NCBI GenBank assembly: GCA_036630325.1 | Contig: CP142727.1 | Span: 620,001-684,000 of the forward strand | Length of the DNA stretch: 64,000 bases | Origin: Vairimorpha necatrix | Taxonomy: Eukaryota | Reading direction: 5' to 3' | In this document: piece by piece, positions 3,690 to 62,920 of the stretch | Numbering within the stretch: position 1 is the first letter of the stretch | Layout of the letters: every line of letters starts with the position of its first letter | The notes under the pieces: model-generated | Told to the model about the DNA's origin: nothing | Database searches by the model: none | The model's input: only the letters and a program-made list of their open reading frames with translations | Program-made: the position numbers and the translations under genes

Positions 3690-5752
3690 TGTGGTATTAT
3701 TCACCACATTACTTATTTTTATTTTATTTTCCCTCCAAGTGAATTTTCTAGAAAATATTTTGCTATAAATATTTTCTTTTATTTTGACCCATCGATTTTT
3801 AGATGAGAAGAGAACAGAGAGTCTACAACGATAACGGGAGGGTATCTTACACCCTACCCCCTCACATGAGGAACTATGAAAGCCCACAGGGGCAATTTAA
3901 TAAACATAATTTAAATAAAAATATACTTTACAATATTGCAGGGAGAAGCATTCTTGAATGCTATTTACATTATGGCCATCTCCCTGGTGGAAACACCACA
4001 ATGAATTCATTAAGTGTTAGAGATTCACTTACAATAAAGAAAAAAAACCAAGTACTATTGAGTGAAGTTAATGTTCCAAAGGAAAGTGTAACCTTTGAGA
4101 AAAAAGTAATTGGAACTCCAATTACCATCCAAGAAAAAATCTATAAAATTAAAGACATTAAAAGAGATTGTAATTTAAAACATATGGAGAAATTTGAAGC
4201 ATTGGCTACTGCCAATGAATGGACGGATGAACAGATGGGTATAATTTACCATTCTTTAATTGACGATGATAGAATTGAAGATAGCTTAACAAGAAACAGC
4301 TATAGGAAACTGAGAGAAGAGATAATTGAAGAAATTTATCCTAAAAGCGATGCCAGGTTATTACTGATAAAGTTGGAAACCGTAAAACAGGTTCAATATA
4401 AGTATATAGTCGACTATTATAATGAAGTGGCGAGTATAATTGAAATTTATGGTATTATGAATGCCTTGAGCAAGAAAGAGTCTGAAAACAGATTATATGA
4501 AGCATTTAATAGAGGATTGAGCAGTTTTACTGCAATTGAAATTTATAAACAACGATTAGACAACTGCCCGACAGTTGAATTAGTTAGATATCTGCGAGGG
4601 TTGGAAGAAAATATTATCTTGCAGGGAACACTAGCTAACATGAATATAAGACCCGTTGATCTTACGAGAAATTATAATAATAATCGGGAAGTATCAAATA
4701 CCCCCATGAATAATAATAAATGGTGCTCTATACATCGAGCGAGATCACATAATACACAAGATTGCCGTATGAAAGGACTAGATGTCAAAAATGGAGAAAT
4801 TACAGATAATAGGAAAATTCTCAACAACTATAATAATAAGGGTGAAATATTAAACAAAAACGACAACGAGAGTAATTGCTTTATAATTCAGAAACCAATT
4901 AAAAACATTACTATCGACCAACTACCCCCAATAAAGAAAAATATCATTCGAACGGGGTATGGAATAGAAGGTGTCTCGAATAAAAAAATCGAAGCTGAAC
5001 AAGCAAAAGTTGCTAATATTAAAATTAACTGTGTGAAAAAGACAGGGAATACACTACCATTAGAAGGTGTATATTCAAGAAAATGTCAATTATATAACAA
5101 AGAAAGAAGTAAGCCGCCTGAAAATGTTAAAGATAACCACCTAGAGCCGAAAGCTTTATCATTACCTAAAAATGGTAATTATAAGATTGGAAATAAATTA
5201 AATCGTGGCGCATTTAGAAAACATTGGCGAGGAAATAGGACACAGCAGATGCTATTTGATAGAAGTAGATATGGAGGAAATTGTGTACGTAAGAAGCTGA
5301 AGTATCATGAATTGAATTCTAACCTTGATTTGAGGTCACAAACGTCAAGCCCAACCAATACTAAAAAATTATGGAAAGAATCTTTTGGCGATTACGGAGG
5401 AACGCCTATTCTTTATTGTTGACTCTGTGGAGGAGGTAGTATGTGGTATTATTTACCACATTACTTATTTTTATTTTATTTTCCCTCCAAGTGAATTTTC
5501 TAGAAAATATTTTGCTATAAATATTTTCTTTTATTTTGACCCATCGATTTTTAGATGAGAAGAGAACAGAGAGTCTACAACGATAACGGGAGGGTATCTT
5601 ACACCCTACCCCCTCACATGAGGAACTATGAAAGCCCACAGGGGCAATTTAATAAACATAATTTAAATAAAAATATACTTTACAATATTGCAGGGAGAAG
5701 CATTCTTGAATGCTATTTACATTATGGCCATCTCCCTGGTGGAAACACCACA
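3690..5752 (+). mobile_element. Gag-only non-autonomous LTR retroelement, 311-bp LTRs (3690-4000, 5442-5752)
   Basis: TGTGG...CCACA LTRs, near-identical (one difference seen by eye); 5-bp TSD AATCC (3685-3689, 5753-5757); purine tract GGAGGAGG before the 3' LTR; no RT, RNase H or integrase. Confidence 0.92.
3803..5422 (+). CDS. Gag-like protein (539 aa), starting inside the 5' LTR
   Basis: Retrotransposon-gag-like segment (FEALATANEWTDEQ...LKQ-like, EAFNRGL) and a CX2HX4HX4C knuckle (CSIHRARSHNTQDC); enclosed by the LTRs. Confidence 0.8.
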   Translation: MRREQRVYNDNGRVSYTLPPHMRNYESPQGQFNKHNLNKNILYNIAGRSILECYLHYGHLPGGNTTMNSLSVRDSLTIKKKNQVLLSEVNVPKESVTFEKKVIGTPITIQEKIYKIKDIKRDCNLKHMEKFEALATANEWTDEQMGIIYHSLIDDDRIEDSLTRNSYRKLREEIIEEIYPKSDARLLLIKLETVKQVQYKYIVDYYNEVASIIEIYGIMNALSKKESENRLYEAFNRGLSSFTAIEIYKQRLDNCPTVELVRYLRGLEENIILQGTLANMNIRPVDLTRNYNNNREVSNTPMNNNKWCSIHRARSHNTQDCRMKGLDVKNGEITDNRKILNNYNNKGEILNKNDNESNCFIIQKPIKNITIDQLPPIKKNIIRTGYGIEGVSNKKIEAEQAKVANIKINCVKKTGNTLPLEGVYSRKCQLYNKERSKPPENVKDNHLEPKALSLPKNGNYKIGNKLNRGAFRKHWRGNRTQQMLFDRSRYGGNCVRKKLKYHELNSNLDLRSQTSSPTNTKKLWKESFGDYGGTPILYC

Positions 5753-6163
5753 AATCCCTAAATTAAATTTACTCTATTGATTCAATAAATAGAGTAAATT
5801 TTGATTATGGATTTGTTTTATATTTGCCATTTGTGTTAAATTATATAATTTATACTTATTTATCTTTATTACATTCCCCATATTTACAGCCTTGAAAATT
5901 TATAAAAATATTAAATTTTATAGTTAAAAAGTGATATTTTTATTCTGTCCCTGTAAAGGAAAATGACTTTTGATTAATTTTGCTAGAAAATGTCAAGTCC
6001 AAGGAGCTTATCATTAAAATAATAAACTCATGTCCAACCAGTGATTTACTTATAAATCTCTTTACAATTACTTATTATTGATTACTCATTGTCAAATTAA
6101 TGAAAAAAAGGAGTTTTTAATTCTTCATTTTGATCAAATACATTTTTTTTTTTACCCCATTTT

Positions 6164-26126: not shown

Positions 26127-26507
26127 TTAGCTATATATTTCTATGGCCCTGTAGTATAGTTCTAGTATGGTCTGAGAACTTATATCGGCACTTCTGTTTC
26201 TGTCGCTCTTATCACATTTGACCGTTTGTCTCTCATTTTGAAACCAAACATTAATCGACTTTAGGCTTAAATTCAATAGTACGCCTATATCACTCTTCAC
26301 ATCCGTAGTTGGGTATTTAACCCTATTAAAAATTGCTCTGAGTACATAATTTTGTACACGAGTCTTCTTGTTCCTGTTTGGAGGTCTTTTATCCTCTTTC
26401 TTCAATTTCAATAAACCTATTATAGCTTCACTGTATAATTGCTTTCTCATTATTATGGCCATATCCCTAAAGGAGATAAAATATTTATCATATAAATCAT
26501 TTACCAT
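26127..26507 (-). CDS. Homeodomain protein (microsporidian HD type)
   Basis: Q..VLRAIF....YPT...LNLSLKSINVWFQNERQ. Confidence 0.9.
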   Translation of the reverse strand: MVNDLYDKYFISFRDMAIIMRKQLYSEAIIGLLKLKKEDKRPPNRNKKTRVQNYVLRAIFNRVKYPTTDVKSDIGVLLNLSLKSINVWFQNERQTVKCDKSDRNRSADISSQTILELYYRAIEIYS

Positions 26508-27924
26508 AAATGGAAAAAAATAAAAAATGATATAAAAACGTAGAGTAGTAAAAATTATGTTTTTTAAATTTCTAACTGTTTGAATTACATTTATATTTTT
26601 AATATGATATTTATAAATTAATAATATATAAATATTTTTGATATTTAAATGTTTTACATAAACAAAATACCAACATATATGTTAATATTGAGTAGTATTT
26701 AATGAATTAATGATGACTATGAATTATTTTGCATATGTCGTACTAAATTGCTATTTTATTTTATGACAGTATAGAGGCTTATATGTCATTTTTCAATATC
26801 ATCGAGACAAATCATGTGTCATTGTACATTGATATTTATGGATAAAACGATCATAAGTATTTAGTACATTAATTAGTTATTTTCAATGATTTTTCTCCTT
26901 TATAAACGTTGAGAAATTAATTTATCATTTTCATAAATTAGTATTATAACACTAATTAGTGTGTCATATTAAATATTATACCAGTATAATTTAATCTTAA
27001 TTCAAAAGAAGAAGTGTGTGTTGTATGTCACATTATTGTAAAATTTGAATTATACATGTTACAAAATTTATAAACATATATGATGAGGTATAAAACATGT
27101 TTATTTATTTACTTACAAAGTGATTCTAAAATGTAGAAATGTCAAATGTTTCAGAATGTGACGTATCATTGTTACAAAAAAAAAGGAGATTGGTTTTGTG
27201 TGATGATAATTTAAATATAATAGGATAGGAAAAAGAATAACAGTTATCACTATAATGACATATTAACTTCTTTGATGATTTAAAAAAATGTTGTTTACAT
27301 TAAAATAACAACTAAATTTGTAAAATAAGACCTCTTGTTTAGTATAATACCGAAATATCTTATAAATAAATATTAAATCCTTTGAGACAAGTTTTAAACA
27401 TTTTTATGTCGATTGAAATTGTTATAAATTTAATTTTTTTTACGGGGATCAAATACACAAGATCTTTTTTATGCAAATAATACATTTGATATAATAATAC
27501 TTATGTTTGTTTAGTATCTGGCATTGCGAATTTTAACAGATAAAGCAGTTAACTTCTTCTTATTTGTATATGATGTTAAATGTTACACTAAAGATAGCGC
27601 CACATAAAGAACTCCAAACAATTATTTATGATCCTAGACAAAAAAATTAAAACTCAAATATGGTTCTAATAAATAGATTTTTTGTAATAAATACCATTAA
27701 GTGATTTATTATAAGTAAAAAATAGACTATCAATATTTCCATATTCCACATATAATTAAAAACCAACTGTCAAAAATCGAAGAAATACCAAAAATAGTGA
27801 TATATTTTTTCAATAAGGTTTTTTATCTAAAAATATAGTTTTATACTTAGACATTTTTTTCTATTACAGTGTTAAGACTTAACGTTGACATAGTTTAGTT
27901 ATAAAAATCAATAATAATGATGAC

Positions 27925-28987: not shown

Positions 28988-31900
28988 TGATCCCACAAGA
29001 GTCCGCGGTGATCCTCACAGAATTAATTTCAATATGATTCAATAATGTTCAAACGATGAACATTAACGACTATATTTCCGTGAATTTATAGAGGAGTTGA
29101 CGGCATAGCAACTCTTCACTATTTCGAAAAACTTTCGTATAAGTAAAAGCATTTGTAGATCCTATTTGCAGACTCTACTTAGTTAAAAAATTATTTCTCA
29201 AAATCCAAAAATTGCATCATAGCATGCAATTAAAAAATAGCATAACAAGTAATGTTGAACTTTGAATTGGCCATTAGTCTCAATCGTCAATTTAAAGGGT
29301 TGTTTCAAAGGAACAGTGCTACTAGATACGACAGTAATATTTTTATGTGTAAACGTCCATAGATAGTTTTTAAAATACCTCTAACATAAGAAAATTTGTT
29401 TGTAAGTGTGTGTTAATAGCTGTCTATGTGGTAAAAAAAAGTCTATAAACTCGCTTTTTACGATTATTATCATTATAGGTCGATAAAACACTGTTAGAAA
29501 TAATGGCCATGAGTACATCACTGATGTTCAGAAAGTAAAAATTTTTGTGATCCCACAAGAGTCCGCGGTGATCCTCACAGAATTAATTTCAATATGATTC
29601 AATAATGTTCAAACGATGAACATTAACGACTATTTTCCCGTGAATTTATAGAGGAGTTGACGGCATAGCAACTCTTCACTATCTCGAAAAACTTTCGTAT
29701 ATGTAAAAGCATTTGTAGATCCTATTTGCAGACTCTACTTAATTAAAAAATTATTTCTCAAAATCCAAAAATTGCATCATAGCATGCAATCAAAAAATAG
29801 CATAACAAGTAATGTTGAACTTTGAATTGGCCATTAGTCTCAATCGTCAATTTAAAGGGTTGTTCCTAAACATATTGATATTAAAATTAAAGGTATAAAA
29901 TATAATTTTTTAAATCTCAACATCCCCCTCTTAAAAACATTCGTCTATTATCAATTTCAGCTGAGAAGAATGTCGCTTAATAGTTTTGTTTCCTGTCCTC
30001 ACCAGATATGTGTTGTTTTCTAAAACTTTATAAATTAAACCTCTAACCTTAAATTTGGGTTCTCCCTTTTTGACACCTGTTTCCGTTTTTATAATAACGC
30101 TATCTCCCTCTGAAAATTGTGGTTCGGTTTCTCGGTTTTTATTTCTTTCATTAAATTTTAGTATCTCCTCATATTGTTTTTCCTTCACCTTTTGAAAATT
30201 GGTAGGGTTAAAGCTTCATTCGGAGACATACCTAATTTGCTATGATATATATTGTTATATACATCTAAAACCTTTAAAAGTTTAATTTTAAGATTTTCTT
30301 TTCCCTCTTGTTTGTATATTCCTTCTTGTATTGTCCTATTAAATCTTTCCACTCTTCCATTGGACTGGTGGTGAAATGGTGAGGTATAATGTAATTCGAC
30401 ATTATTACTTGCTGCCCAACATCTTACTTCTTTACTTAGGTTTTTTTCGATTGATCTAAAATTAGTTTATGTATCTTAATTTTTTGATTTATCATATCTA
30501 AAAATTTTATAATTTTCTTACTCTCCCTGGAACTTAGTACCTTTCCAAATCCGAATCGACTAAAGTAATCAATCCCAGACACGATATATTGGTTGTTAAT
30601 TGGACCAATAATATCTATTGCTACTTTCTTTCCAATTGCATGTGACTTTACAAATAAAATTCTTTTCCCTCTTTTAGGATCATACATTTTACACCGAATA
30701 CACCTCTTTAACTCGTTTTTAGTCAATTTTTCCATATCTTTCCAATCGTATTTCTTTTTAAGTTCATTTTGAACTGCTTTATGACCTCTATGGACAAGTT
30801 CTAGGTGTTTATCACGGATAATTTTTCTTTTGTCTTCCTCAGTCATTTCTAATTCTAGATTTTTAATCTCTAATATTTCTTGTCTTGGTGATCTGGATAA
30901 GCAATCCACATGTGGAATGTTTGTTACTTTTCTATATACAACACAATAATTATATTCACTAAGTTTGTCTAACCATCGTTGGATCCGCAAAGATTTTATC
31001 TCTCCCCTATTTAGTGCTTCTAGGGCCTTATGATCAGTGACTGCAGTAAATTCATTTCCATAGAGGAAATATCTGAAATGTTCCATCCCCCATAACATCG
31101 CTAAACATTCCTTTTCGCTGATTCCATAGTTTATCTCAGCAGGTAACAATCTTCTTGAAGCATAAGCAATTGGTACTGGACCACTTCCATGATCCTGTAA
31201 GAGGATAGCTCCTATTCCTGACTGGCATGCATCTGTTTCCAAAATATAAGGTTTTTTGTAATCGGGTTGGGATAGAACCACGCGTGATCTCAATATACTT
31301 TTTAATTTCTTAAAAGCTTTTTCTTCTTCATCTTCCCACTTAAATACAACATCCTTTTTAAGTAAATCATACAATGGCCCGGCAATGATTAAACATTGTG
31401 GAATAAATTTACGATAGTAATTAATCAATCCTAAAAATTCCTCACAAGATTTTCTATTATTTGGTCTTTCTATATTTTCAATTCCTTGTTCAGCAGAAAA
31501 TTTCGGCTTTATCTTGTTATATTCAATAACATGGCCTAAAAATTCTATGTTCTCTTTTTTATGTATAGTCTTTGACTCGTTAATTCGTAGCTCATATTTT
31601 TGTAGCTTGTTAATAACCTTTGTATAGCTTGTATCATGTTCTTCTTCATTTCTACCAAAAATAAGGATGTCATCAACATAGACAAAGCAATTTTTCCCTA
31701 TTTCTTCTTCAAGGACGTTGTCCATAAACCTTTGAAAAACGGCTGGTGCATTTTATACCCCCATGGGCATTACGTTCCATTCGTATAATAAATGATTAAA
31801 TCTGAAAGCAGTTTTGTGTTTGTCTTTTTCAGCCAATTTAATTTGAAAAAATCCATCTTTTAAATCAATTTTTGAAAAATATTTCATGTCTCTAAGACTG

Positions 31901-33328
31901 AATATAAGTCTTTCAATATTGGGGAGGGAATAATTATCTAGATCTACCAATCTGTTGAGCGCTATTAAATTTGTAGTAACTCTTATGGATCCATCCGGTC
32001 TGATCACTGGCCTAAGGTTATTTAGCCATGTTGAATTAGATTTCCTTATATGCCCGTTTTTTAATAACTCATTTATAGAGTTTTGTATTCCTTCCTCCAA
32101 TTTCTTTGGTAAACTATAAACGTGTTCTATTACCTTCTCTCCTGGTTTAGTATTGATCTCACAAATTCTATTGCTCGGTTGTCGAAAAACTTTACAAATA
32201 TCATCTTTTCCTATTAACATTTTAAAATTTTTAACTTTAGGTAAAACATACATTCTGCTTTTAAATATTCTATTACCATATTTGTATTCCACAATAACAT
32301 GGTTTTCAACTAGAAATTCTTCTTCAAGACATGTGAAAAATTTCAAAACATTCATATTCTTATTGAGTTTCAATTTTAAATCATAGACAGCTTGAAGAGA
32401 GATAAAGTTGTAGGCCGCACCCGAATCAAAAACCACGGGGACTTTTTTAGTCCCAACATAAATAAAATTATTTTTATTCGTAATAAAGCTTTGATCTACT
32501 TCCTGACTATCCTTTTCAATCTCATTAATATTCCTTCGATCATCATTAGCCTGTTTATTATTTCGATTCACCCTACAATCCTTAGCTAAATGTCCTGGCC
32601 TTCTGCATCTAAAGCATGTATTTGGTTGGTTCTGTTTAATAAGTCTTAAACCAGCCAACTTGATATTCAATAATGCTTCGTTCTCCATCTCATTTAATAT
32701 TTCGTAAAATTCTTTGTTGATCTCATATTGGGTCGTAAGAAAAATTTTAATCATTTTTAACTTTTTATCTACTCCTGATCTAATAATTTTTCTTCTGTCA
32801 AAATTGGAAATTTCATTTTCATTACATTTAGAAACTACATCTTTGATAAAATCAACAACTTTTTGTTCTTCCTTTTGCTTCATATTGTAAATGTCAAAAA
32901 GCAATGTTTTATTCTCAAATTCTTGTTCCACTTCCTTTTTCCAGATTTCAAACGTTAAAGCAGCTTTCCTTTTATCTTTAAATGTCCTACAATGCCAATC
33001 TAAAATATGAGAGTTAAGTCTGCTTATAAAAAAAATCTAACTTCTCCTCATTGGTCATTTTTGCCCAACTACTCAGAGCCTCTGCTCTTCTAATTTCTAC
33101 TATTATATTGTCTTTGTTTATTTCGTTTTTTATATTCTCCACCATAAACATATTTATTCTAAATTTAAGGGTATAAAATATAATTTTTTAAATCTCAACA
33201 GTTCCAAAGGAACAGTGCTACTAGATACGACAGTAATATTTTTATGTGTAAACGTCCATAGATAGTTTATTTTAATACCTCTAACATAAGAAAATTTGTT
33301 TGTAAGTGTGTGTTAATAGCTGTCTATG
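28988..33328. repeat. Tandem duplication of a ~440-bp unit (period 560 bp): copy 1 28988-29428; copy 2 29548-29866 plus 33206-33328, split by a Gypsy insertion
   Basis: High visible identity between the copies; copy 1 retains the empty site GTTTC at 29302-29306. Confidence 0.9.
29867..33200 (-). mobile_element. Ty3/Gypsy LTR retrotransposon with 56-bp LTRs (33145-33200, 29867-29922); gag-PR-RT-RH-IN, frameshifted
   Basis: TSD GTTCC; PBS TGGTGGAGAAT; PPT GAGGGGGA; CFRCRRPGHLAKDC, FDSGA protease, YVDD, ETDAC RNase H, HHCC/DDE integrase. Confidence 0.93.
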
Positions 33329-33400: not shown

Positions 33401-34559
33401 CGTATGGGAAAAGGCGCCAACGTATAAAAGAAAATTTGAAAAAAAATAGCCCTAAAAAGAAGAAAGCAAAATGCAAAAATTTATTGTAAAATATCATCAA
33501 TATAGTTATATAAAGACGTAATTTTTTTTAGAACTTCCAAACAGTCATTGTATTTGAAGTCTTATGTTTTAGGTATTGTTTTGTTATTTTTTTGTCTTTG
33601 CTGGAAGCTTGATTTGTCAAGTTGTTAATTTGGTAAAGAAGTTAAGCAAAAGACATAAAAGTATATCATACATAAAAAATACATGAATCTTGAAAAGGAC
33701 TAAAGAAAATAGCAAAATTTCAATAAATTGCAAAGCTTACCTTATTCAGGCTTGTTTATATTTTTATCAGACCAGTATGCTGTTATTCTTTCTTCGGTAA
33801 TAAAATAATTATCATAGTTATAAATTAAAGTCCTGATCTTGAAATTTAAACTCATTTTAAATGTCACGATTATTAGAATAGCTAGAATTTTTAACCTACA
33901 TCGTGTGTATTTCTAGTTCTTCTCTTTGAGTTGTTTTGCTTGGAATAAATTGTCTTTTGAATCATCAAGCATCGGCGTTGTTGCCAATATAATTTTATTT
34001 TGTATTTTTGCTTTTAGGTTTTTTCTTTTTATATATTTATTCACAAATAGTACTTAGTTCGGGAAAGTATTCAATTTTTCATGAATATGTTCTTGATAAG
34101 TAAATATTTCTTTTTATAAAAATAATGCTTGCACTAATTCTGCAATTCTTAAGTAACAAAGGCAGTTTATAATACATCGGGGTTTTTATAAGTAATTTGA
34201 CCCTTTGTATAGCTTTCTGTAATAAAAATTTTTTATGTCTTTTATTTCAACATGTCTTTCTTTCCGATCTTGTAATCTTCTTTCATTTTCCATTTTAAAG
34301 AGGGACCTTAACATTAAGGAAAATTCAAATTTTGATAAAAAATTTATACAGTCTTTTAATGACATAAATTTGAATAAGAAGAAATAAATAAATTTGTTAT
34401 ATTGTATTTGTGAGATTTATTTGTATCATACTATTATTAAATTTAGTTTTTAGTTTATGGAGTTTCTTCCCGATTTTTTTTCTTCAATTCATAATTCATT
34501 TTTTGGGGCAATTTTTTTTCAAATTTTCTTTTAAACGTCGGTTGTCTTTTCCGCCAACC
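33401..34559. mobile_element. Degenerate TIR element (~1.15 kb), superfamily uncertain
   Basis: ~50-bp imperfect inverted repeats (33409-33458 versus 34501-34550); no intact ORF. Confidence 0.5.
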
Positions 34560-38299: not shown

Positions 38300-39257
38300 G
38301 GCAGTCTGGTGGCCAAAAATCCCTTAAAAGGAATTTTTAAAAAAAATCACCCCCAAAAATGAAAAGTCAAGAGGAAAAACTTTTTGAAATTTTTTTTAAA
38401 AAATATTTAAAAAACAAGCAAATCATGTAAAAAATGTGGTTCTATAAGTAAAAAATATAATGAAAATTTTATTTTTCGATGTACTTGGTCTAAATGTAGA
38501 AGTAAATGGTCTTTATTAAAAAACACTCCATTCTACAATAACAAGCTTGGAATTAATACTATGCTATTAAATATTAAATTATGGTCTGTTAATGTAAAGT
38601 ATAAAGCTATTGCGGAATTTTTTGGAATTAGCATTAAAAGTGTAAGAAAAATCATTTCTTTAACACTAAATTCCATCGAAAATTCTGTTTACGTTGAAAC
38701 AGGTATAATAGGAGGACCCGGGATTGTTGTGGAAATAGATGAAAGTAAGTTTGGTAAATTAAAATACCATAGAGGCCATGGGTAGAAGGAGTTTGGATTT
38801 TCGGAATGGTAGAAAGAACACCTCAAAGGAAAATTGTGTTTGTTCCTGTTGATAATAGAAGAGCAACTACACTAGAAGAACTTTTAATTAAATATGTTCA
38901 CCCAGAATCTATCATACATAGTGATTGCTTCTCTTCATATTCTAGGTTGTTTTTCAACAACATAAGACGGTTAATCATTCAAAAGAATTTGTTAATAAAA
39001 ATAATTCATGCCATATTAATACTATCGAAGGTAATTGGAGCGCTGTTAAAAGTGAAACTTCCATAAAACATAGAACAAAAAAATTAATAAAGAGTTCTTT
39101 GTTAAGATTTATGCTTAGAAGAAATTTTGAAGGGGATTTGTTTGATAAAATTATTAAAATGATTTTTAAGTTTTTATTTTTTTCCTCTTGACTTTTCATT
39201 TTTGGGGGGGATTTTTTTAAAAATTCCTTTTAGGGGATTTTTGGTCACCAGACTGCC
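38300..39257 (+). mobile_element. Merlin DNA transposon, transposase disrupted
   Basis: ~78-bp TIRs GGCAGTCTGGTG...GAGGAAAAA; IGGPGIVVEIDESKFGK, GMVER, IHSDC and NTIEGNW motifs; no TSD seen. Confidence 0.88.
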
Positions 39258-42273: not shown

Positions 42274-43502
42274 GGTGTAGGATACATTGAACCCCCCTTG
42301 AAGCGCTTCGATTTTTTTTCGAACCTCAAAATTGAAGTGCAAAAAAAAAGAGGAGCAAGCAAGGGACAAAAATTTCTTTCCACTGTAAACATTAAAAATA
42401 CAAAATAATAAGGCAAAATGGCTTAAAATTAAATTTCAAATCAAGATATATAAAAAACACTTTTTATATATTTCTGGAGGGTTTGTAAGGATTATTTCTT
42501 TTAAAAGTAAACAAATTAAGAAATCAATTTACATCTTTTCCAGTCCGATATCATGCAGGAATCACTCTTTTACACCAGCCCATGTTCCTTCAATTGTGTT
42601 AGTATAAAACATTCTATGGATTCATAAACCAAGGGAATGGTTAAAGGTATGGTTTTTGTATATGCCTAAGTGATTTGAATTTATACACCCTCTCCAACAT
42701 TCAGTATATGTAATACTTCCGGGATGTACATGTTCTTTTATGAATCTTTCGAGAGTCACGGCTTTTCTATTTTTAACTTTAAGTAAGACTAAGCCTCGTT
42801 CTGTCGTTCTTTCCACCATCCCAAGTACCCATACGCCGTCAACTTTGTGGCCTCTGTTGTATTTTCTCTTTCCGAATTTAAATTCATCAATCTCTACAAT
42901 ATTACCTGGACCTCTTATTTTTTATTACCATTTATATGCTTACTAAAGTTTTTGATAATTCTATAAATTGTTTTCGATTAAAACTATTAATTTTTTAATT
43001 GTTTTTATGGCCGTATTTTAACAAAAAGAAATATGACCTGGCATTTTATCAGCCATGGCAATTTAGATCCATAGAAGGATTCTTTTTTGTTATCGTAAAT
43101 TCTTTTCTGCAACTTTTTGTGGTACATCTCATTAGATTTTGTATTTCTATACGTCTGTGTACATTCCCACTACAATGTGAACAAAACCTTAAATTTAAAG
43201 TAGATTTCAATATTTTCTCAACGTCCTTGTAGAATTCTGTGATTTTTAAGAGGAAAACAAGAAAATTATTATAAAATAAATGAATTTGAATGTAGGTAAA
43301 AATTTTAAGTAGGCACTTTTTATTTTTAGAGCTTGGTTAAAAATTTAATTTTAAGCCGTTTTATATTATTATTTTGTATTTTTAATGTTTAAAATGGAAC
43401 AAAATTTTTGTCCCTTTCTTGCTCCTTTTTTTTGCACTTCAATTTTGGGGTTCGAAAAAAAATCGAAGCGCTTCAAAAGATGGGGGTCTAATGTACCCCA
43501 CC
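42274..43502 (-). mobile_element. Merlin DNA transposon with ~165-bp imperfect TIRs, degenerate
   Basis: Long inverted repeats (CTTGAAGCGCTTCGATTTT...); IVEIDE.KFGKRKYNRG, GMVER and NTIEGTW remnants; no TSD seen. Confidence 0.82.
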
Positions 43503-43945: not shown

Positions 43946-46900
43946 TGTATTTATTTTCCATAATGGGGTTCAAAAATATAAGAATATATAACATCCCCCT
44001 CCAAGACGGTTAGTCTCCTACGTCATCATCAACCCTAAGCAGATCTTTTAAGTCATAGTGCCTCTTCTTAACTATCGTCCATTCACTAATTTTACTACAT
44101 AAGAATCCCCTGGACACACAATCCTAATCGTCCCAATATCCAAAAACCTACCTTTTTCATATTTATTAGACCCCTTTAAATTTTCACTCTTCGCAACTCG
44201 CACTCTCTGTCCTTCGACGAACTTGTCACTATATCTCTTTTTAAATCGACTACTATAATCTCCTTCTGGTCCATTTCTTAGCATTACATTGCCCGTATTA
44301 TCTTTAACTGCCTCAAATGGTGTGCATCCTAGACCTTCATGGTAACTATTATTATAAATCTCAAAGGCCTTCATAACTCTTTCTTCAAAGCTATTTTTGG
44401 GATTCATTTTTAAAACAGATTCTCTCAACGTACCAATAACTCTTGCAACTCTCCCATTGCTTTTATGTGATTCAATACTGGTCTTTCTGTGAGTTATATC
44501 CAACTTTCTGCATAACTCTCTAAATTCCTCATTTGCAAATTCTCTTCCATTGTCCGATATGATTTCTTCTGGTCTTTTACCATTTCTACACAAATTTCTA
44601 TAAATCCAGTTATCGAGCTAGCACGCTTATCTTTCAACACGCAACCCCATGCGACTCTCGTATAGTAATCAATGACGACCAAGACAAATTTACCCAAATC
44701 TCTATAATCGATTAAATCTATTGCCACCTTTTCTAGGTATCTACTTGTCGCAATAAAATCGCATCCTCCTGATTTTTTCCTATTGTATTTTTGGCATTTT
44801 TCACATTTTTTATCATCATTTTTATATCTTCCTTAATTCCTGGCCAATAATAGTCAAACTTCATAGCATAATAGACACTTCCTAGTCCTCTGTGGGCCTG
44901 TTCTTCGTGGTACCTCTTCATTAACTCTAACCTATCACCTACTGCAGGTATTTCCGCTCTACGACCAGAATTGAAAATTCCAGTGCTCCTTGTCCCCGAC
45001 TTTCTCAACGTGCTTTTACCATTTTCCCCGCTATCTGTTTCACTGTTCTATGTCCAATTTATCTCTCTTAGGTTCATTTTCCTCATGGATTCTGCTCAAT
45101 GCATCAGAAACAACCATCTGATCGGGTTGCCTGTACTCGATTTCAAAATCAAACTCTTGGATCATCTCTATCCACCTGTTAATCCTATTATTATTAAAAC
45201 ATGGCTTTCTTCTTATTTCTGCTAAAGCCTTATGATCAGTTTCAACCTTAAACTTTCTTCCTCTCAATTCATACTCAAACTTCTTTATGCCAATATACGG
45301 CATACATCTCTTTTCGCTAATTCCGTATCTAGTTTCAGTCGGAGTAAATTTCTTTGATGCCCATTGTACCGGCACCCATTCCTCTTTTTCATTTTTCTGC
45401 ATAAGTACAGCTCCCATACCAATATTACTCGCATCCATTCTTAATAAAAATTCGTTCTCGTAGTTAACAATCCTCAATTTCCCTAAATTCTTAAGCACTT
45501 TTTTCATATTCTCAAATTCAATATCCAACTCCTCAGTCGAATTCCAACTTTTGTTTTTCACTCTGGCTAAAGTTCACTTAGACACGCAAAAATCGATATA
45601 GGCTTTTTTTGTTTTTTTTTGCCCCTTTTTTTCAAAAATGGAGGAGAGAAAATGTTAAGGAAGGAACAAAAAAAACAAGTAGAATAAAAATTTTAATAAT
45701 TCATCAAAGACGGAACCCGATGAATTTCAAAGGAGCATATACCTAAACAAATAAATTTTTGCGCTATTTTGAGACCTATTTCTATTGGGTATGGAATTTT
45801 TGAGGGAACGCCAATTACCTTCTATAGTATTCGTATGAACTCCCGTATTTGGGTCCCTGAAATGCAATGAGTGATTAACCATGTGGTGTTCATTGAATAT
45901 TGTATTCAAAGAATGGTAAGCCCTCCGCATATCGCTATATATAGTACTTTTCGTACTTACATATTTCACTAAAAGATTAGTAAGCGTTTCTTTATTTCGT
46001 TTTTTAATATATAGTATTATGATTTTTCGTTCGATGGTACGTTCGACCATGCCAAAACACCAGAAGCCCTTCACTAATTATCTCTATGGTTTTTATTCTT
46101 TCCAACTTTTGTCTCATCAATTTCAACTATTATACCTTCTCCGCCCATAATACTTAGAGAAGATAAATACTTGTCGTTAATATTCATTTCTTTTAATTTT
46201 TTTAATAATAATGTCATGTGTTTTTTTGGACAACCTAAAATTTGAGAGATATGCTTTCGAGAATAATCAAGAACCCACATATTAAGTATCTGCATACATA
46301 ATATATGGTTGAGTTTACAATTATCGAAGAACGTATCATGCCAGATGGAAATCGATTTTTTACAACCTTTCCAAGTACATTTTAAGTTATAACTGCCTTT
46401 TCTTTCTTTCCTCATTCTATTAAAACATATAACACAAGATTGATCTTGTAATTTGATTATTAAATTATTATATTTGATTTCAATTTCTTCTCTTGTATGA
46501 ATTCTCTCCTCCATTTTTGAAAAAAAGGGGCAAAAAAAAACAAAAAAAGCCTATATCGATTTATGCGTGTCTAAGTAAACTTTAGCCTTCACTCTTAAGC
46601 AATCTGTCATGTGTTTCGTTTCCTCTACGAGTTCTTTATAAATCCTCTGAACCAACCACTTAATCCTAAAAATCTTCTTACGTCGGTTACATTTTGCGGC
46701 TTCGAAAATTCTAATGCTTCATTCTTTTTTATCTCGGATGGCATCATATCCTGCCCATTCAATGTTACTCCTAATAATATTCAGATTGACGATACTGTAT
46801 CTTCTTTGAGTTTAATCTCATGTTATTCTCTTCTAACAGTCTCATTGCCTCTAAAAACAATTTGTCGTGTTCTGCTCTAGTCTTGGCATGTATCACAATA

Positions 46901-48113
46901 TCATCCATTCAAATTTCTATTTCTCTTCTCAAATACTTCTCATAAATCTTATTCATAATCCTTTGCATGATCTGTGGCGAATTTTTAAACCCCATGACCA
47001 TGCTGTTCCACTCGTATACTTTCTTATCAAACTCAAACGCGGTCTTATGCTTATCCGCTTCTTCTATCTCAACCCCATAAAAGGCTTCTTTAAGGTCAAT
47101 AACACTCATAATCTTCGAGCCTTGGTAAACCTAATAATATCCCTGATGTTACACAACTCGTATGGATCCTTCTCTACTAAATCGTTCAGGTCCATAAGAT
47201 TACTGACCAAACGTATGCTCCCATCCGGCTTAACTATAGCCTTTATCTGATTCTGCCATTCAGAGGTTGATCTTTTAATTACATTTCTTTTCTCCAAATC
47301 CTCTAAGTGCTTCATTAATTTGTTTTTATGCGCTTGAGGAATCATCTGTCCCTTCCTAACGACTTTTTTCCCTGCTTCTGTCTTGATTTTACATTACTTA
47401 ATTTCCCCCTTATTTTCATCAATAACGTTTTTAAATTTTTTCTTAACATCTTCTAAAGTCAGCCCCTTGAATGTTGTCGTTTTTTAATTTCTCTTCTTAA
47501 TGTCTTTAACTTCTCCAGCTCGTTTCCATTGTGAACCTGGCCTAACTTCTGTCTGTTCTTTTGTCTTTTACCAGCCCACGTATTCCTGTAATATTTCCGT
47601 CGCTGCTGCTACTGTCCTCTTGAAATATTTTCTCACATTATTGTTTATTTCTCTCCTCTCTGTATCTATTATAACATATTTACTTTTATATCCTAACCTT
47701 TCACAATAAAAACATCTCATTGTCCTCAAATACCGTTTCCTACGCTCTATATCCTCTGTATATATTTCTTTTGACAAATTCAGAGTGACCCCTTCAATCA
47801 TTCTAAATCTCTCTTCTCCATCTTCATAATCCTTTACAATCTCTTTTAGCCGTATTCCTATCATGTCATGGTAATCCTCTAAACCTATATTCATAACCAT
47901 AAAATTTTTAAGCTCCAAACTTCCCCTTTCAAAAATAATTTTCTTCATCGCTTCTACACTGTATAACTTTGATCTCATGCATAATAATCTTATATTCTTG
48001 CAATAGTTTTCTGGCCTCTTGACCACAGCCAACACTTGTTAACTCACGATTTGTTATCGCCCCCATGTATTTATTTTCCATAATGGGGTACAAAAATATA
48101 AGAATATATAACA
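43946..48113 (-). mobile_element. Degenerate Ty3/Gypsy element with 48-bp LTRs (48066-48113, 43946-43993), interrupted by a Merlin
   Basis: LTRs differ at one position; PBS TGGGGGC; PPT GGAGGGGGA; RT (IDLKEAFY, MGFKNSP), RNase H (DASNIG) and integrase (SDNGREF) fragments; flanks TATAT/TTTAA are not a clean TSD. Confidence 0.9.
45565..46587 (-). mobile_element. Merlin DNA transposon (1023 bp) nested in the Gypsy pol
   Basis: ~85-bp TIRs GGCTAAAGTT...; 8-bp TSD TTCACTCT; transposase 46514-45727 with one frameshift near 46077 (EIDETK, YSD, HTNTIEGNW). Confidence 0.95.
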
Positions 48114-48883: not shown

Positions 48884-48971
48884 GTAAGAAAGAGTGATCT
48901 GGCAGAAAAACAGACTTGGGATTTGACCCTTCCCCTTTTAGTATGCTTACTAAAGTATTTACACACTATAT

Positions 48972-49258
48972 TGTGATATTAATTGCCACCTTTTTGATTT
49001 ATTTTTATTTTCCCTCCAAGTGAATTTTCTAGAAAAATATTTTCGATTTTATTTTACCCACATAAAAGGATGAAATATCAAAAGAACAACATAAAGAACT
49101 ACGGGAGGTCTTAAAGAGACTTACCCCTCACAAGAGGACGGAGTATCTCCCACACGGGATACTAATAAAATTTACGTAATTAAAACTAATTTGAATGCAG
49201 AAAGAAGCATTTTGGATGCTATTTACAGCAAGACCATCTCTTCGGTTGTAAGACCACA
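48972..49258 (+). mobile_element. Diverged solo LTR of the 311-bp LTR family
   Basis: TGTGA...ACCACA termini, shared core TTTTCCCTCCAAGTGAATTTTCTAGAAAA, TSD TATAT. Confidence 0.8.
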
Positions 49259-49405
49259 TATATAATTATATAATTCTAATCTATTCTTTTATTTATATTT
49301 TCTTTATCGAGTAACTTGAAGGAGTTTTGATAATTAGAGATGATATAGTTAATAAAGAAAACGGAACAACTTACCTCAATACAAAAATAATCACAAAAGT
49401 AAATT

Positions 49406-49759
49406 CTACGAAAAATTTATTTTTTTTTCAGAATTCAATACATTTGCCCACTTATATAAATACAACAAATATTTGCGATCTACATCGTCGCAGTTTTTAT
49501 TTTTTCTAGCTTCTGGTGTCATGTTTCTTCTTTTCTTTTGAAACCACCATTTAATTGAATTTATATTCAAATCGAGAAGCACGCTCAAGTCTTCTACTAA
49601 ATTCAATGATGGCCATTGAACTCTTTCATAGGTGTGAAAGAGCACATACTCTTTAACCTGCGTATAGCTTCTTGGTTTGTATCTTTTGTTTTCTTTTTTT
49701 AGTTTTATCAATCCAAATAGAGCCTCCGCCAAAGTATTATCGTCTAAGAAGTTGTTCAT
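49406..49759 (-). CDS. Divergent homeodomain protein
   Basis: YVLFHTYERVQWPS...LDLNINSIKWWFQKKRR; paralogous to 26127-26507. Confidence 0.8.
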   Translation of the reverse strand: MNNFLDDNTLAEALFGLIKLKKENKRYKPRSYTQVKEYVLFHTYERVQWPSLNLVEDLSVLLDLNINSIKWWFQKKRRNMTPEARKNKNCDDVDRKYLLYLYKWANVLNSEKKINFS

Positions 49760-49897
49760 ACCCCGTGGAGAAATAAATAATTAAGTACTTAAATATTAAT
49801 ATAAAATTATATTTAATATATTATGTTACTAATTAAGACTGTTTTTTCGAAAAAAGCAGGGAAGCTAATTAATGCAACTTTAACAATAATAATATAT

Positions 49898-52800
49898 TGT
49901 AGGGTTTAGAACCCTTAATAAATAAATGGTTAACATGGCGAACACAAGGATGAACAGGGAAACAAGAGAGTCCCGTAGTCAAGAGGCTAGAACATTAGAG
50001 AAAGAGGCAATTAGGATAGATAAGAGACTAAAGTTAATATTGAAAGTTGAGAAAGTTGAGTGGAAAGATGTTATGGATTTGGCATCTGCGAACTTGCAGG
50101 ATTATATTTTTGAAAATTTTTGTGACGGAAGGAGCAGTTGGGAGGAAATTTATAAAGGCTTACAAAAAGGAGCAGAATTTGAGAGAGAGTCAGAAGAAAG
50201 ACAAGAAATGATTAAAGAGATTATGGATAAAGTGTTGAAAGAGTTTAGGGAAGAAAGAAAAGAAAATCTTAGGATGTATAGGAAAAGAAGAGAAATCAGA
50301 GAAACTACAAAATGTTTTATATGTAAGAAAGAAGGGCATTACGCTAGAGAATGTTATGAAAGTGTAGCTGGTAGGGAAAAATATAAAATTAAAAAGGAAC
50401 AAGTTTTACAGAAAGAACCAATTATCAACAATGAAGGGAAAAGATGTAAAACAGTAAATAAGTTAGAAAATTTAATTGAAAAGTATCCGGAAGTTTTTAA
50501 AGAATCAGAAGAAAAGATAAAATATCTCACAGGAGAGAAGTGTCCAATAAATACTAAGCAAGGTGAAAAGGTTGTGAAAAGAGGGCAGAATGTGCCATAC
50601 TACCTTAGGGTGAAATTTGAGGAGTACTTGAATAAGTTGGAAAATAGAGGGGTTATAAGACGTTCCAAAAGTGAGTGGAGGAGTCCAATAAGAGCACTTG
50701 AAAAACCAAATGGGGACGTAAGATTGGTAAGCAATTTGATGGCGTTAAACGATTTGGTTGACAAGGACCCGTACTCACTACCGTTAATTAAGGATATTAT
50801 GAGAGCCACACAGGGGTCAAAAGTATTTACGGTTATCGACTTAAAAGAAGGGTTTTATCATATTGAGATTGAGGAGCACCATAAGCACAAAACAGCATTT
50901 GAAGTGAATGGTCGAGTATACGAATGGAATAGTATGGTTATGGGGTTTAAGAATTCGCCTCATATAATGCAGAGAGTAATGGACAGAGTTTTAGATGAAT
51001 TCAGAGGTAAAGGCGTGGAAGTATATATGGATGATATAGTTATTCATGGTAAAGACGTAAGAGTGCATGACGAGTTACTAGAGAGGGTAATTAAAAAGTT
51101 TAAAGAGTGTGGGTTGAGAATAAACCAAACAAAGATACAATACAAAAAAGATGAGGTGATGTTGCTGGGAGTAACAATTAATGGGGAGGTCATGGGACCG
51201 AATGAGATTAAAAAGCAGGAGACATTGGAATATAGAAAACCTGAGAATGTTAGAGAGTTAAGAAGATTTTTAGGACTAACTGGTTGGTTTAGAGACTTTA
51301 TTCCCAACTATGCGTATAGAACAGTAAGGCTTACTGAGGCTTTAAAGAAAGATGTTAAGTGGAATTGGACGGAGGATATGGATAGAGCTTTTGAGGATAT
51401 GAAGCAAGGCTTGAGAGATATGAAAAAGTTGAAGATTCCGGACGGAAAAAAAGCTATTTAGAGTAAGAACTGATGCGTGTGATACGGGGATCGGAGCAAT
51501 TCTATTACAAGAAAATAAAGAGGGTGAGTGGATTCCGATACAATGGGCATCGAAAATGTTGACTCCTATCGAGCGAAGATATACGATAAGTGAGAAGGAG
51601 ATGTTGGCGGTGTTTTTTGGAATAAAGAAGTTTGAAAGTGATTTGAGAGGAAGGAAATTTCATTTGATGACGGATCATAAAGCATTAGCAGAGATCAGAA
51701 ATAAGCCATACTTCAATAATAACAGAATAAACAGATGGGTAGAACAGATACAAGAGTTTGACTTTACAATAGAGTATGTGAAAGGGGAGTTGATGACAGA
51801 TGCAGATGCGTTAAGTAGGCAGTATGATCAGGTAGAAGTTTCGGATGAACAAAAAGAAAAGGACAACAAGAGAAAAGAAGTGATCGAAAAACAAATTTTG
51901 GGAAAAAAGCAGAAACATATTAAATAAAAGGACGGTAAACAGTATTGGGAATTTTCCACAGGTGAGGTGAAAGAGATATTGAGCCTAGATAGTAGAGAAC
52001 ATGAAATAACAAGAGTACATGAGGAGTTAAACCATAGAGGTGTCAAAGGCACTTATTATAACATTAAACAAAGATGGTATTGGCCTGGTATGAAAGATCA
52101 TATTAATAAGGTAATTAAGAATTGTGAAATATGTGGGATTAACAATAGGAAAAACACAGGAGGATGTGATTTCGTAGTAACTAGAAAGAAATTGGAGAAA
52201 GTGGCGTTGGATTTAATGGACATAGGTGGAGAGAATAGGTATGTGTTACTGGGTATTGATTACTTTACTAGAAGGTTGTGGGGTTCGAATTTGAGATGTA
52301 AAGAGAGTAGTGAAGTTATAGAGGTATTACAAAAGTGGATAAAGGAAGATGGATTTCCAGAGGAATATGTGACAGACAACGGAAAAGAGTTTGTAAGTAA
52401 TAGATTTAAAGAATGGTGTAGTATTAATGATATTAAACATAGGAAAGTGGGCTTAGAAGCTCATAGGAGTAATGGTAGAATCGAGAGATGCATCAGAACT
52501 ATAAGAGAGACATTGATAAAGCAAAATGATGGGAATATTTCTGAAAAGATAGAAAGAGCAATCAAAGGATATAATAATACACTACATACAGCAATAAAAT
52601 GTACGCCGATGGAAGCGTGGAGAGATCAAACTGCTGAAGTTATAATTGAAAATGATGAAAATGGAAAATATGCTGGTCGGTTCAAGAGAAGACACAGAGA
52701 GACATTTACAGTAGGCCAAGAGGTAAGAATCGCTAGGAGAGAAAATTTAGGTACACGTGCGAAAACAGACAAGGGAAGATTCACGGGTCGCGGAAGGATC

Positions 52801-52973
52801 GTAGCTATAAGTGAAAATGATTCATATATTGTGAGACTACTGGATGGTAAAATTGTTAAAAAGAGGCATTATGATTTGAAAGAGATAAGGAAGAGTTGTT
52901 TAGAAGATGGAGAGACTACCCGTCTGGAGGGGGGATGTAGGGTTTAGAACCCTTAATAAATAAATGGTTAACA
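49898..52973 (+). mobile_element. Ty3/Gypsy LTR retrotransposon, 3076 bp, identical 38-bp LTRs (49898-49935, 52936-52973)
   Basis: TG...CA LTRs, TSD TATAT, PBS TGGCG, PPT GGAGGGGGGA; CFICKKEGHYAREC, YMDD RT, TDACDTG RNase H, HHCC and DDE integrase; only two lesions (A7 run 51446-51452, TAA 51925-51927). Confidence 0.96.
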
Positions 52974-53990
52974 TATATTATAATGTAGAAATTTACAAAT
53001 TGGTGTAATATGATTTGTATATGCAATAAAATGGTTTTCATGATTATTGTTCATTGATTTATCATTATTAATATATATATATATATTGATCGATTACATT
53101 TGTTTACTATTATATCAAATATAAGCTAAAGCATTTTATATAATTAATTAATACAACTTTTAAAAGCATTATTTTATATAAACATTCTAATAATTGTCAT
53201 TTCAAATATTTATGAATATTTTATTGGTGAATTTAATCAGACAACATCCATGACACAAAAAATTACATAAAAAAATATATTATTGATGTATTTTCATAAA
53301 ATTCATTTGTTTTGGTAAATAATCAAAACGTGTCAAATATTTTGATGTTTTATTAATTATGCGTCATAAAATATAAAAATGTGTAATATTTATACAAAGA
53401 ATTCGCATTTATATGGTAATTTATGATTCATGTTGCTTTAAAAATATTCCAGAGTTTTGAAAGAAATATGGAATATAACTGCTAACTTTACGTTCTTTCT
53501 AAAAAAAACTAAAAAATAAATATAAATAAAATGTTTGGCTGTATTGGAATACATAATCCTTAGTATTAACTCAACAAGAAATGGATTTTTATTAAAAAAG
53601 TAAACTAATAAATTAATAATTAATATGTACATTCTTACTGTATAATTTACAAAAAAATCAAACTTGCTCAATAAATTTTATCAATAACAACTTTAACTTG
53701 TACAGTATTTATTTTACAATTGAGGTCATATTAGTAACCACTATAAATACCATTTTTTAGATTTTCCCTCCTTCAAATCGAAATAAATTAAAGCAGTGTG
53801 ATAAAATTAGTAAAAAATTAATTTTATTATTCTTAAAATTTCTTGACAATGCAATTAATGCTATTAATTTTTCTTCTATTTGCGACATTTTTTAGTTTAC
53901 ACAAATCAAGTCTTTTATAACTATAAGATCTTGGATAAATCCTAAATTAGTTCTAAATAATATTTTTGGCTGATAAGTATAGATTTTTTG

Positions 53991-54349: not shown

Positions 54350-54667
54350 TGTGGTATTATTTACCACATTATTTTATTTTTATTTATTTCCCTCCAAATG
54401 AATTTTCTAGAAAATATTTTGCTATAAATATTTTCTTTTTACTTTACCAAAAATTTTTGGAAGATGAGAAGAACTGGAAACAAAGACAGATACAGTGACA
54501 TCGGAAAGGCCTCTCATACCTTACCCCCTCACATGAGAAACCAATCTAGCCCACAATGGAAATACAATAAACACAATTTAAATAAAAATATACTTAATAG
54601 TATTGCAGGGAGGAGCATCATCGAATGCTACTTACAAACAGGACACCTCCCTGGTGGTAACACCACA
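54350..54667 (+). mobile_element. Solo LTR of the 311-bp LTR family
   Basis: TGTGG...CCACA termini, colinear with 3690-4000, TSD GTATA. Confidence 0.92.
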
Positions 54668-54929
54668 GTATACAAATATAGTTTTTAACGAAACTAGTTA
54701 CTTGAGGTGTAAAGCAGAAAAGTACAGACATAAATTTCAGTTTGGAATAATTCATTATATGAAAACACTAGACTAGATCATTATCTGATTTAAAAATAAT
54801 AAATTGTGGATAATGGGAATTAAAGTGTTACATAAATCAAGAATTTTGGGATGTAATGTACAAAATGTAAGTTACACTTGCAAAAATTATGCAATTTAAA
54901 TATTTATAAGAGGTATTTAAATAATAGAA

Positions 54930-61897: not shown

Positions 61898-62920
61898 GGC
61901 TGAAGTAAGCATTAGCTACAAAAAATCGATATAGGGTTTTTTTGTTTTTTTTTGCCCCTTTTTTTAAAAAATGGAGGAAAGAATTCGGACAAGAAAAGAA
62001 TTGGAGATCATATATAATGATCTAATAATTAAGAAAGAAAATAAAAAATGTAGCGTCTGTAATCAAAAAATGTAGCAAAGAGGGGAGCAAAGAAGTCTCA
62101 TAAGGTGTCCATGGAGCTCATGTAAAAACACAATTTCAATTTGGAATGGAACTTTCTTTCAGGATTCTAGGCTAAATCACATCAAAATATCACAAATAAT
62201 AAATTTATGGATTCTAGGTTATACACGTAAGTCCATTTCTCAAGTTTTAGGTTGTACTAAACCTTCTATATCTTCCGTGCTAAAAAAGTTAAAAGAAATG
62301 AGTCTTTATGATAAGTATTTATCTAGTATAGGGACTATTGGAGGCGATAATCTTATAGTGGAAATTGATGAGACTAAGATTGGGAAGAATAAATACAATA
62401 GGGGGAAGTTAGTAAAAGGATTTTGGTGTTTTGGAATGGTTGAACGTACCATCCAACGTAGAATCATAGTAGTATATATCAAGAAAAGAGACGAAAGAAC
62501 ACTTACTGAACTTCTTTTAAAATATGTAAGTAGAAGCAGTATTATATATAGCGATATGTGGAGAGCGTATCATTCTTTATATACAATATTTAACCAACAT
62601 AATATGGTTGATAATACATTACATTTAGAGATCCGAATACAGGAGTACATACCAATACCATATAAGGTAATTGGAGATCTCTAAAACATTCTATACCAAA
62701 TAGAAACTGATCATCTAATAGCGCTAAACTTTATTTATTTAGATATTTGATCCAAATAAACTTTAAAACACCAGTTTTTGAAGCTTTATTGAAATATTTA
62801 TTCTAGTTTTTATTTTTGTTCCTTCCTCATCATTTTCTTTCCTCCATTTTTTAAAAAAAGGGGCAAAAAAAAAACAAAAAACCCTATATCGATTTTTTGT
62901 AGCTAATGCTTACTTCAGCC
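61898..62920 (+). mobile_element. Merlin DNA transposon (1023 bp), transposase disrupted
   Basis: ~85-bp TIRs GGCTGAAGTAAGC...; 8-bp TSD GTTGACTG; EIDETKIGKNKYNRG and YSDMW motifs. Confidence 0.95.

Follow-up and report, generated by a model that had tools for sequence, protein, structure and literature searches.

LTR retroelements are considered to require both an aspartic protease and a two-lobe capsid, and a Ty3/gypsy-type element of the microsporidian Vairimorpha necatrix raises the question of whether an element can spread with neither. It lies in a 64,000-nucleotide stretch of contig CP142727.1 (positions 620,001 to 684,000; assembly GCA_036630325.1, 15.0 Mb in 12 contigs), called here the window, which is AT-rich and in which transposons are interspersed with intronless eukaryotic genes. 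A first-pass annotation had proposed that two separate diverged families, one represented by the element that begins at 49898 (E1) and the other by the element at 43946-48113 (E2), lack the protease and carry only a tiny Gag, and that this reflects a lineage-level loss; a third family, with 56-bp LTRs, was said to keep a protease.

E1 spans positions 49898-52973 on the forward strand (3,076 bp) and is bounded by two identical 38-bp LTRs of the form TG...CA (49898-49935 and 52936-52973), outside which lies a 5-bp target-site duplication, TATAT (49893-49897 and again 52974-52978). The start codon is formed by the last base of the 5' LTR together with the primer-binding site (49935-49948); the latter, 13 nt at 49936-49948 that are themselves translated, is complementary to the 3' end of host tRNA-Arg(TCG), the best match among the 63 tRNAs called in the genome. 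The corresponding sites of E2 and of a protease-bearing element, E3, point to tRNA-Pro(AGG) and tRNA-Ala(AGC), respectively, and E2-like families match tRNA-Pro(AGG) over 11-14 nt. A degenerate primer site was ruled out, tRNA matches of 11-14 nt being present in all six elements compared (6/6).

In open copies of E1, a single 1,003-aa frame opens on the final base of the 5' LTR, terminates within the 3' LTR, and encodes a mini-Gag, a zinc knuckle, a linker, reverse transcriptase (RT), RNase H, and integrase; the order of the three enzymes was confirmed with Pfam on a natural open copy, the integrase being of the rve type. In the window, the frame begins with a single helical domain (aa 14-81, 49974-50177) that profile-profile comparison and a structure model relate to the first capsid lobe of protease-bearing sister elements and whose language-model features are Gag-like. 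A long charged helix occupies the position of the second lobe of those elements (50178-50312; predicted in the model at aa 69-124), followed by a single CCHC knuckle (aa 127-140, 50313-50354), invariant in a 28-row clade alignment, a charged linker of 39 aa without a protease (50355-50471), RT (50472-51447, with its Pfam core at 50700-51179 and a YMDD motif), RNase H (51448-51759), and an integrase with HHCC and a DDE core (51928-52947). The frame of the window copy itself stays open no further than aa 508, being broken by a frameshift near 51450 and by a stop at 51925, ahead of the integrase; the uninterrupted frame previously ascribed to this copy thus holds from the knuckle through the start of RT and fails downstream. 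We hold this anatomy, a polyprotein with a small Gag and no protease, with very high confidence.

Three tiny LTRs in the window (49898-49935, 48066-48113, and 33145-33200) carry a CCC motif and AATAAA near the 3' end. Since AATAAA sits there, U5 must be minimal or missing altogether, and 3' cleavage may occur past the LTR. Passages of PMC2803860 describe microsporidian 5' UTRs of <7 nt, with CCC motifs ahead of the start. At the other end of E1, a conserved AGAC-n-GTCT inverted repeat (52912-52925) is followed by the polypurine tract, the two together occupying 52912-52935. AGAC-n4/5-GTCT was found just 5' of the polypurine tract in eight protease-less families (E1, L112, L116, L118, L178, L179, L181, and L198) and was not seen in the protease-bearing sisters L168 and L169; a published Anncaliia algerae consensus in the supplement of PMC4202319 also carries an AGAC-GTCT inverted repeat. 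It is possibly a packaging or strand-transfer signal. Small homeodomain-like frames with WFQN and WFQK motifs were noted by eye at 26127-26681 and 49406-49780 (-), the second directly upstream of E1.

The E1 family has at least 40 copies in the genome: of the 92 candidates in a DNA search, the 40 that were scored were all identical at 97-100% over the 5' 523 bases. Twenty copies (L061-L080) were fetched from the best of the genome matches, a choice that favours intact copies, and were analyzed with the window copy. All 21 measured 3,066-3,076 bp; LTR pairs were identical in 17, perfect 5-bp target duplications flanked 19, and 15 had a frame of >990 aa. An A preceded and a T followed the duplication at all 19 sites; its first base was T in 15 of them and its fifth base A in 16 (A-TnnnA-T, the duplication standing between the hyphens). 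Among 11 copies, variable codons comprised 36 non-synonymous and 19 synonymous changes, most of them seen in one copy each, and the copies are too young for such changes to show selection. The family has spread recently.

The compact layout reported for E1 was borne out, with 39 aa (given earlier as ∼45) between the knuckle and LIEKYPEVF at aa 180, and 126 aa of Gag (∼130) before the knuckle. The linker was 39 aa in 20 of the 21 copies, the remaining one having no match to the landmark. D[ST][GC] is absent before RT in every E1 frame, the element's two matches falling in RNase H or off-frame, and none of the 21 copies has D[ST]G in its first 250 aa. Pfam searches at E<=1 returned RT and zf-CCHC in E1 but no protease. 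Among 107 genome matches, 34 span aa 1-222 at 98-100% identity within 657-666 nt; so many near-identical matches of this length leave no room for a protease and argue against chance or decay. A custom protease profile built from 42 protease-bearing sequences (leave-one-out scores, 26-88 bits) recovered four protease-bearing sequences that the motif had missed (29-65 bits). On the pre-RT parts of 51 clade sequences, its highest score was 4.9 bits, with reversed controls reaching 3.3, and whole-protein scans, with a maximum of 3.9 bits, dismissed relocation of the protease elsewhere in the polyprotein.

A structure model of aa 1-222, from the N-terminus to the start of RT (37-row alignment, mean pLDDT 80), predicted helices at aa 11-36, 43-49, 52-62, and 69-124, followed by the knuckle, a helix, and disorder, with low confidence in the linker at aa 160-174; no strand of three or more residues, and so no cryptic protease fold, was predicted. 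Across the clade, the linker ranges from 49 to 193 aa, and D, E, K, and R make up 38-48% of the four linkers scored for charge; the stretch from the knuckle to a landmark near RT is 84 aa in L116, an intact relative of E2, versus 60 in E1. The reading in which a cryptic protease lies in the linker or elsewhere, or in which the layout is that of a decayed or misassembled copy, could draw on the broken window copy and on three clade members whose 132-193 aa between knuckle and RT match protease-bearing lengths, but it is largely refuted and very improbable: those long linkers score at background, whole-protein scans stay low, the E1 linker is just 39 aa, a protease was found in 0 of the 21 copies, and the layout is constant in all of these and in named records of other microsporidia. 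The nearest protease-bearing sister, P0147, has D-P-G in place of D-T/S-G (29 bits with the custom profile, Pfam E 2e-4) and perhaps represents a decaying protease beside the protease-less clade. In a further family of the genome (L189 and L196), D-Y-G stands at the active-site position of the protease.

E2 (43946-48113, reverse strand) has the layout that had been claimed for it, a knuckle and then RT with no protease, in a decayed copy. Its frame is interrupted by several stops and frameshifts, its knuckle, from 47714, is degenerate, its 48-bp LTRs differ at 1 base, and a perfect target duplication is absent; its DNA is 71-74% identical to the intact family L116. Inserted in it is a DNA transposon (45565-46587, reverse strand) with 86-bp inverted ends and an 8-bp duplication, which from these features we take to be of the Merlin/IS1595 type. 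Four 1-kb elements with inverted ends lie at 61898-62920, 38300-39257, 42298-43476, and 33417-34541, the first being a relative of this insertion. At 3690-5755, a 539-codon frame that has no Pfam hit and by eye resembles the Gag of family L170 is flanked by direct repeats that are 300 bases or longer and 1,752 apart; related repeats occur near 48970-49260 and 54350-54670, and 3690-5755 is possibly a Gag-only LTR derivative.

E3 (29867-33200, reverse strand), an element of the protease-bearing sister type, served as an internal control. As had been noted, its family, with 56-bp LTRs, keeps FDSGA, and the protease was detected as RVP_2 (E 4e-4); in E3, moreover, Gag has two lobes, and a Tyr codon shortly before the protease is preceded by AATAAA at a distance of 18 nt. 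At least six more protease-less families occur in the genome (L112, L116, L118, L178, L179, and L181), several with many frames of >1,000 codons, and intact protease-bearing families with long open frames reside there as well. The closest named relatives of E1 are microsporidian (Nosema granulosis, Vairimorpha necatrix, V. ceranae, and Enteropsectra breve), and no relatives were found among viral contigs. Metagenome and prokaryote collections yielded 7 and 3 loci, respectively, three of them usable (L171, L172, and L198). L198-L200 are clade members on short contigs within bacterial metagenome-assembled genomes, a placement that is most likely binning contamination.

After 13 short or redundant rows had been dropped, 94 RT-RNase H cores went into a quick tree and 52 of these into a careful one; the two trees agreed. 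All 28 protease-less rows formed one clade (28/28; support, 98/87), so that loss of the protease is one change on the tree. This clade is sister to three protease-bearing rows (100/99) and lies within a larger protease-bearing group. Nested among the 28 rows is a clade of the 24 mini-Gag rows (98/88), and two basal pairs are protease-less with longer Gags. RT is thus nested in protease-bearing rows with the gypsy domain order, in a tree made without a curated reference set, whose outgroup rows did not fall on one side of a branch. Because both families of the window fall inside one clade, the loss was one, not two; what had been described as two separate families are members of the same protease-less lineage, and two independent losses were rejected, since the tree requires a single change. 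The proposal of a lineage-level loss was upheld by the 28-row clade, by the missing cryptic protease, and by the 21 copies. Sequence comparison supports the conclusion that the aspartic protease was lost once, long ago, inside microsporidian Ty3/gypsy elements.

In profile-profile comparisons, the mini-Gag matched the first capsid lobe at a probability of 97% with a mixed profile and at 70% (60 columns) with protease-bearing rows only, and the second lobe at 2.3% (reversed controls, 0.2-0.3%). For the basal rows, the match was 91% to lobe 1 and 46% to lobe 2, although taken singly they scored just 0.9-6 bits on lobe 2. The distance from Met to knuckle was 93-158 aa in 35 rows versus 188-244 aa in 10 complete sister rows, and the language-model neighbours of the mini-Gag were Gag clusters (∼0.90). 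A fold search gave the Arc C-lobe at Z 5.2-5.6 (rmsd 3.1-3.2 over 63 residues), tied with unrelated helical proteins; the model had no Foldseek match at E<=0.001 and no VIA match at Z>=8, which does not demonstrate a new fold. On these comparisons, the mini-Gag probably matches the first lobe alone, the second having been lost specifically, and the four basal rows probably keep both. An order in which the protease went first and the second lobe later is plausible but less firm, and it does not explain why the knuckle of mini-Gag rows is absent from the basal rows.

A lead on how free Gag might arise came from a short peptide, N-K-x4-Y, present after the knuckle of 20 mini-Gag proteins among 44, against an expectation of 1.1. 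At the DNA level, where each family was represented by one sequence, an AATAAA placed 18-19 nt ahead of an in-frame TA occurs in the segment at the Gag end in 5/10 protease-less and 10/22 protease-bearing families versus 12/568 other segments, a spacing picked after seeing the data and a comparison among related families. AATAAA encodes N-K in every one of the motifs (12/12) versus 133/240 instances elsewhere (chance about 8e-4), and in three families the hexamer is retained in another codon phase. A short second mRNA would be cut and polyadenylated within the Tyr codon, 12-13 nt behind the internal AATAAA, and its tail would complete a UAA stop, yielding surplus free Gag without a protease. 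Passages of PMC2803860 describe stochastic use of AAUAAA in microsporidia, with read-through.

The exact internal AATAAA-Tyr motif does not occur in E1, L112, L116, L119, or L198; the sole candidate internal poly(A) signal in E1 is ATTAAA in the linker (50388-50393), and no Tyr codon follows it. The protease-bearing L041, L045, and L056 have a similar peptide without AATAAA, and depletion of AATAAA elsewhere was seen in only 1 of 9 frames. In sister elements, N-K-x4-Y sits at the N-terminus of the protease, and it is possible that the peptide is a remnant or a cleavage site. Exact look-ups for Gag-only proteins ending at the predicted Tyr returned 0 of 10, P0007 had no short relative, and 10 short cluster members included no such protein; these negatives are weak, since clustering conceals short members and contigs lose their tails. 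We rate a Gag-only mRNA with a poly(A)-completed stop as an even chance for families with the motif and as quite doubtful for E1. Loss of the protease may have been made possible by Gag freed in this way.

The catalytic and zinc residues of RT, RNase H, and integrase are invariant over the 28 rows, at 42-68% identity, from which we infer that these elements use their own enzymes. How the polyprotein would reach a working form is less clear-cut. In one proposal, a host protease or the proteasome trims the disordered linker and frees Gag and Pol; the charge of the linkers, the low model confidence at aa 160-174, and basic pairs ahead of RT in many rows would suit it, but no conserved site exists apart from N-K-x4-Y, and we consider it improbable. 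In a second proposal, the main competitor of an uncut polyprotein but one that we judge somewhat unlikely, the protease of a co-resident Ty3/gypsy family cuts the polyprotein in trans, making the element a partial parasite with its own RT and integrase and N-K-x4-Y an inherited Gag/protease cleavage site. Because intact protease-bearing families with long open frames share the genome, such a protease is available; the position of N-K-x4-Y in sister elements and the similar peptide without AATAAA in three families speak for a peptide site, and the published library of another microsporidian, in the supplement of PMC4202319, contains both kinds of element. However, E1 and its nearest relatives lack N-K-x4-Y, and the uniform AATAAA spelling and phase-shifted hexamers are unexpected for a peptide site. 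Moreover, co-assembly usually precedes cleavage by retroelement proteases, and a one-lobe Gag may not permit it.

In the reading that we prefer, the element's own RT and integrase would copy it while joined in one polyprotein. The linker, charged and variable in length, behaves like a tether and would connect Gag flexibly to RT, and Gag, made up of one lobe, the long helix, and the knuckle, would bind RNA and oligomerize into a reduced particle or a ribonucleoprotein, not a Ty3-type capsid. Protease loss blocks replication in Ty1, Ty3, and retroviruses, which counts against this reading, and we see the case for the uncut 1,003-aa polyprotein as the working form as evenly balanced. The full proposal, a self-sufficient lineage without protease or closed capsid that relies on an uncut protein, a one-lobe coiled-coil Gag scaffold, and a poly(A)-stop Gag mRNA inherited from protease-bearing microsporidian ancestors, is tentative and unlikely to hold in all its parts.

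The E1 clade descends from and works like Ty3/gypsy elements, yet it fails their canonical domain definition. It resembles Ty3 of S. cerevisiae and Tf1 of fission yeast in its LTRs, polypurine tract, RT-RNase H-integrase order, 5-bp duplication, and CCHC knuckle, and its tRNA-type primer site is a likeness to Ty3. Ty3 and Tf1 depend on both an aspartic protease and a two-lobe capsid; they exceed 4.5 kb, with LTRs of several hundred bases, whereas E1, at 3.08 kb, has LTRs of 38 bp and an interior free of non-coding sequence. Some canonical genes are also missing from TRIM, LARD, TR-GAG, BARE-2, and DIRS/YR elements, and DIRS elements replicate without an aspartic protease. The E1 clade differs from non-autonomous LTR elements and DIRS in its intact RT, RNase H, and DDE integrase and in its direct LTRs and target duplications. 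Classification as a non-autonomous element of the TRIM, LARD, or TR-GAG kind was rejected on the long frames (15/21 copies) and invariant catalytic residues, and classification as a DIRS or tyrosine-recombinase element on the rve-type integrase and the 5-bp duplications.

Parisot et al. (2014; PMC4202319) described three microsporidian Ty3/gypsy groups with one polyprotein each, a point repeated in passages of PMC13174016; these groups resemble the E1 clade in having a single polyprotein and in being microsporidia-specific. Consensus_retroL of A. algerae, in the supplement of PMC4202319, is by eye E1-like, with a short LTR, an ATG at the LTR end, a knuckle, AATAAA 18 nt before TAT, and RT. The word "protease" is absent (0 occurrences) from both the main text and the supplement archive of PMC4202319, and the portions covered make no mention of loss of a protease or capsid lobe. 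A passage of PMC2474625 states that "nearly all" Nosema bombycis elements have five domains, and an exception may be in print. No description of a protease-less LTR clade was found in the literature searched, Repbase and the original N. bombycis element description lying outside its scope, and the clade is probably undescribed as such.

Parts of the proposed route to free Gag have precedents. EVD and other plant Ty1/copia elements have a single frame and make a short, prematurely ended Gag-only mRNA, according to passages of PMC5580714; these plant elements retain a protease and gain the stop through splicing, whereas the route proposed for the E1 clade involves no intron, the poly(A) tail completing the stop. 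In nuclear genes of Blastocystis, as PMC4159000 reports, polyadenylation completes stop codons; these are host genes directed by a downstream GU-rich element, unlike the E1 clade, which consists of retroelements.

A deep clade that was probably reduced stepwise and is still spreading in a 15-Mb genome bears on how little such an element must keep to copy itself. Two questions become testable: can RT and integrase, still fused to Gag, carry the cycle to completion, and is a closed capsid required? If true, the poly(A)-made stop would be a further way for single-frame elements to make more Gag than Pol. Annotation that demands a protease domain, or LTRs of >100 bp, would miss or misclassify such elements.
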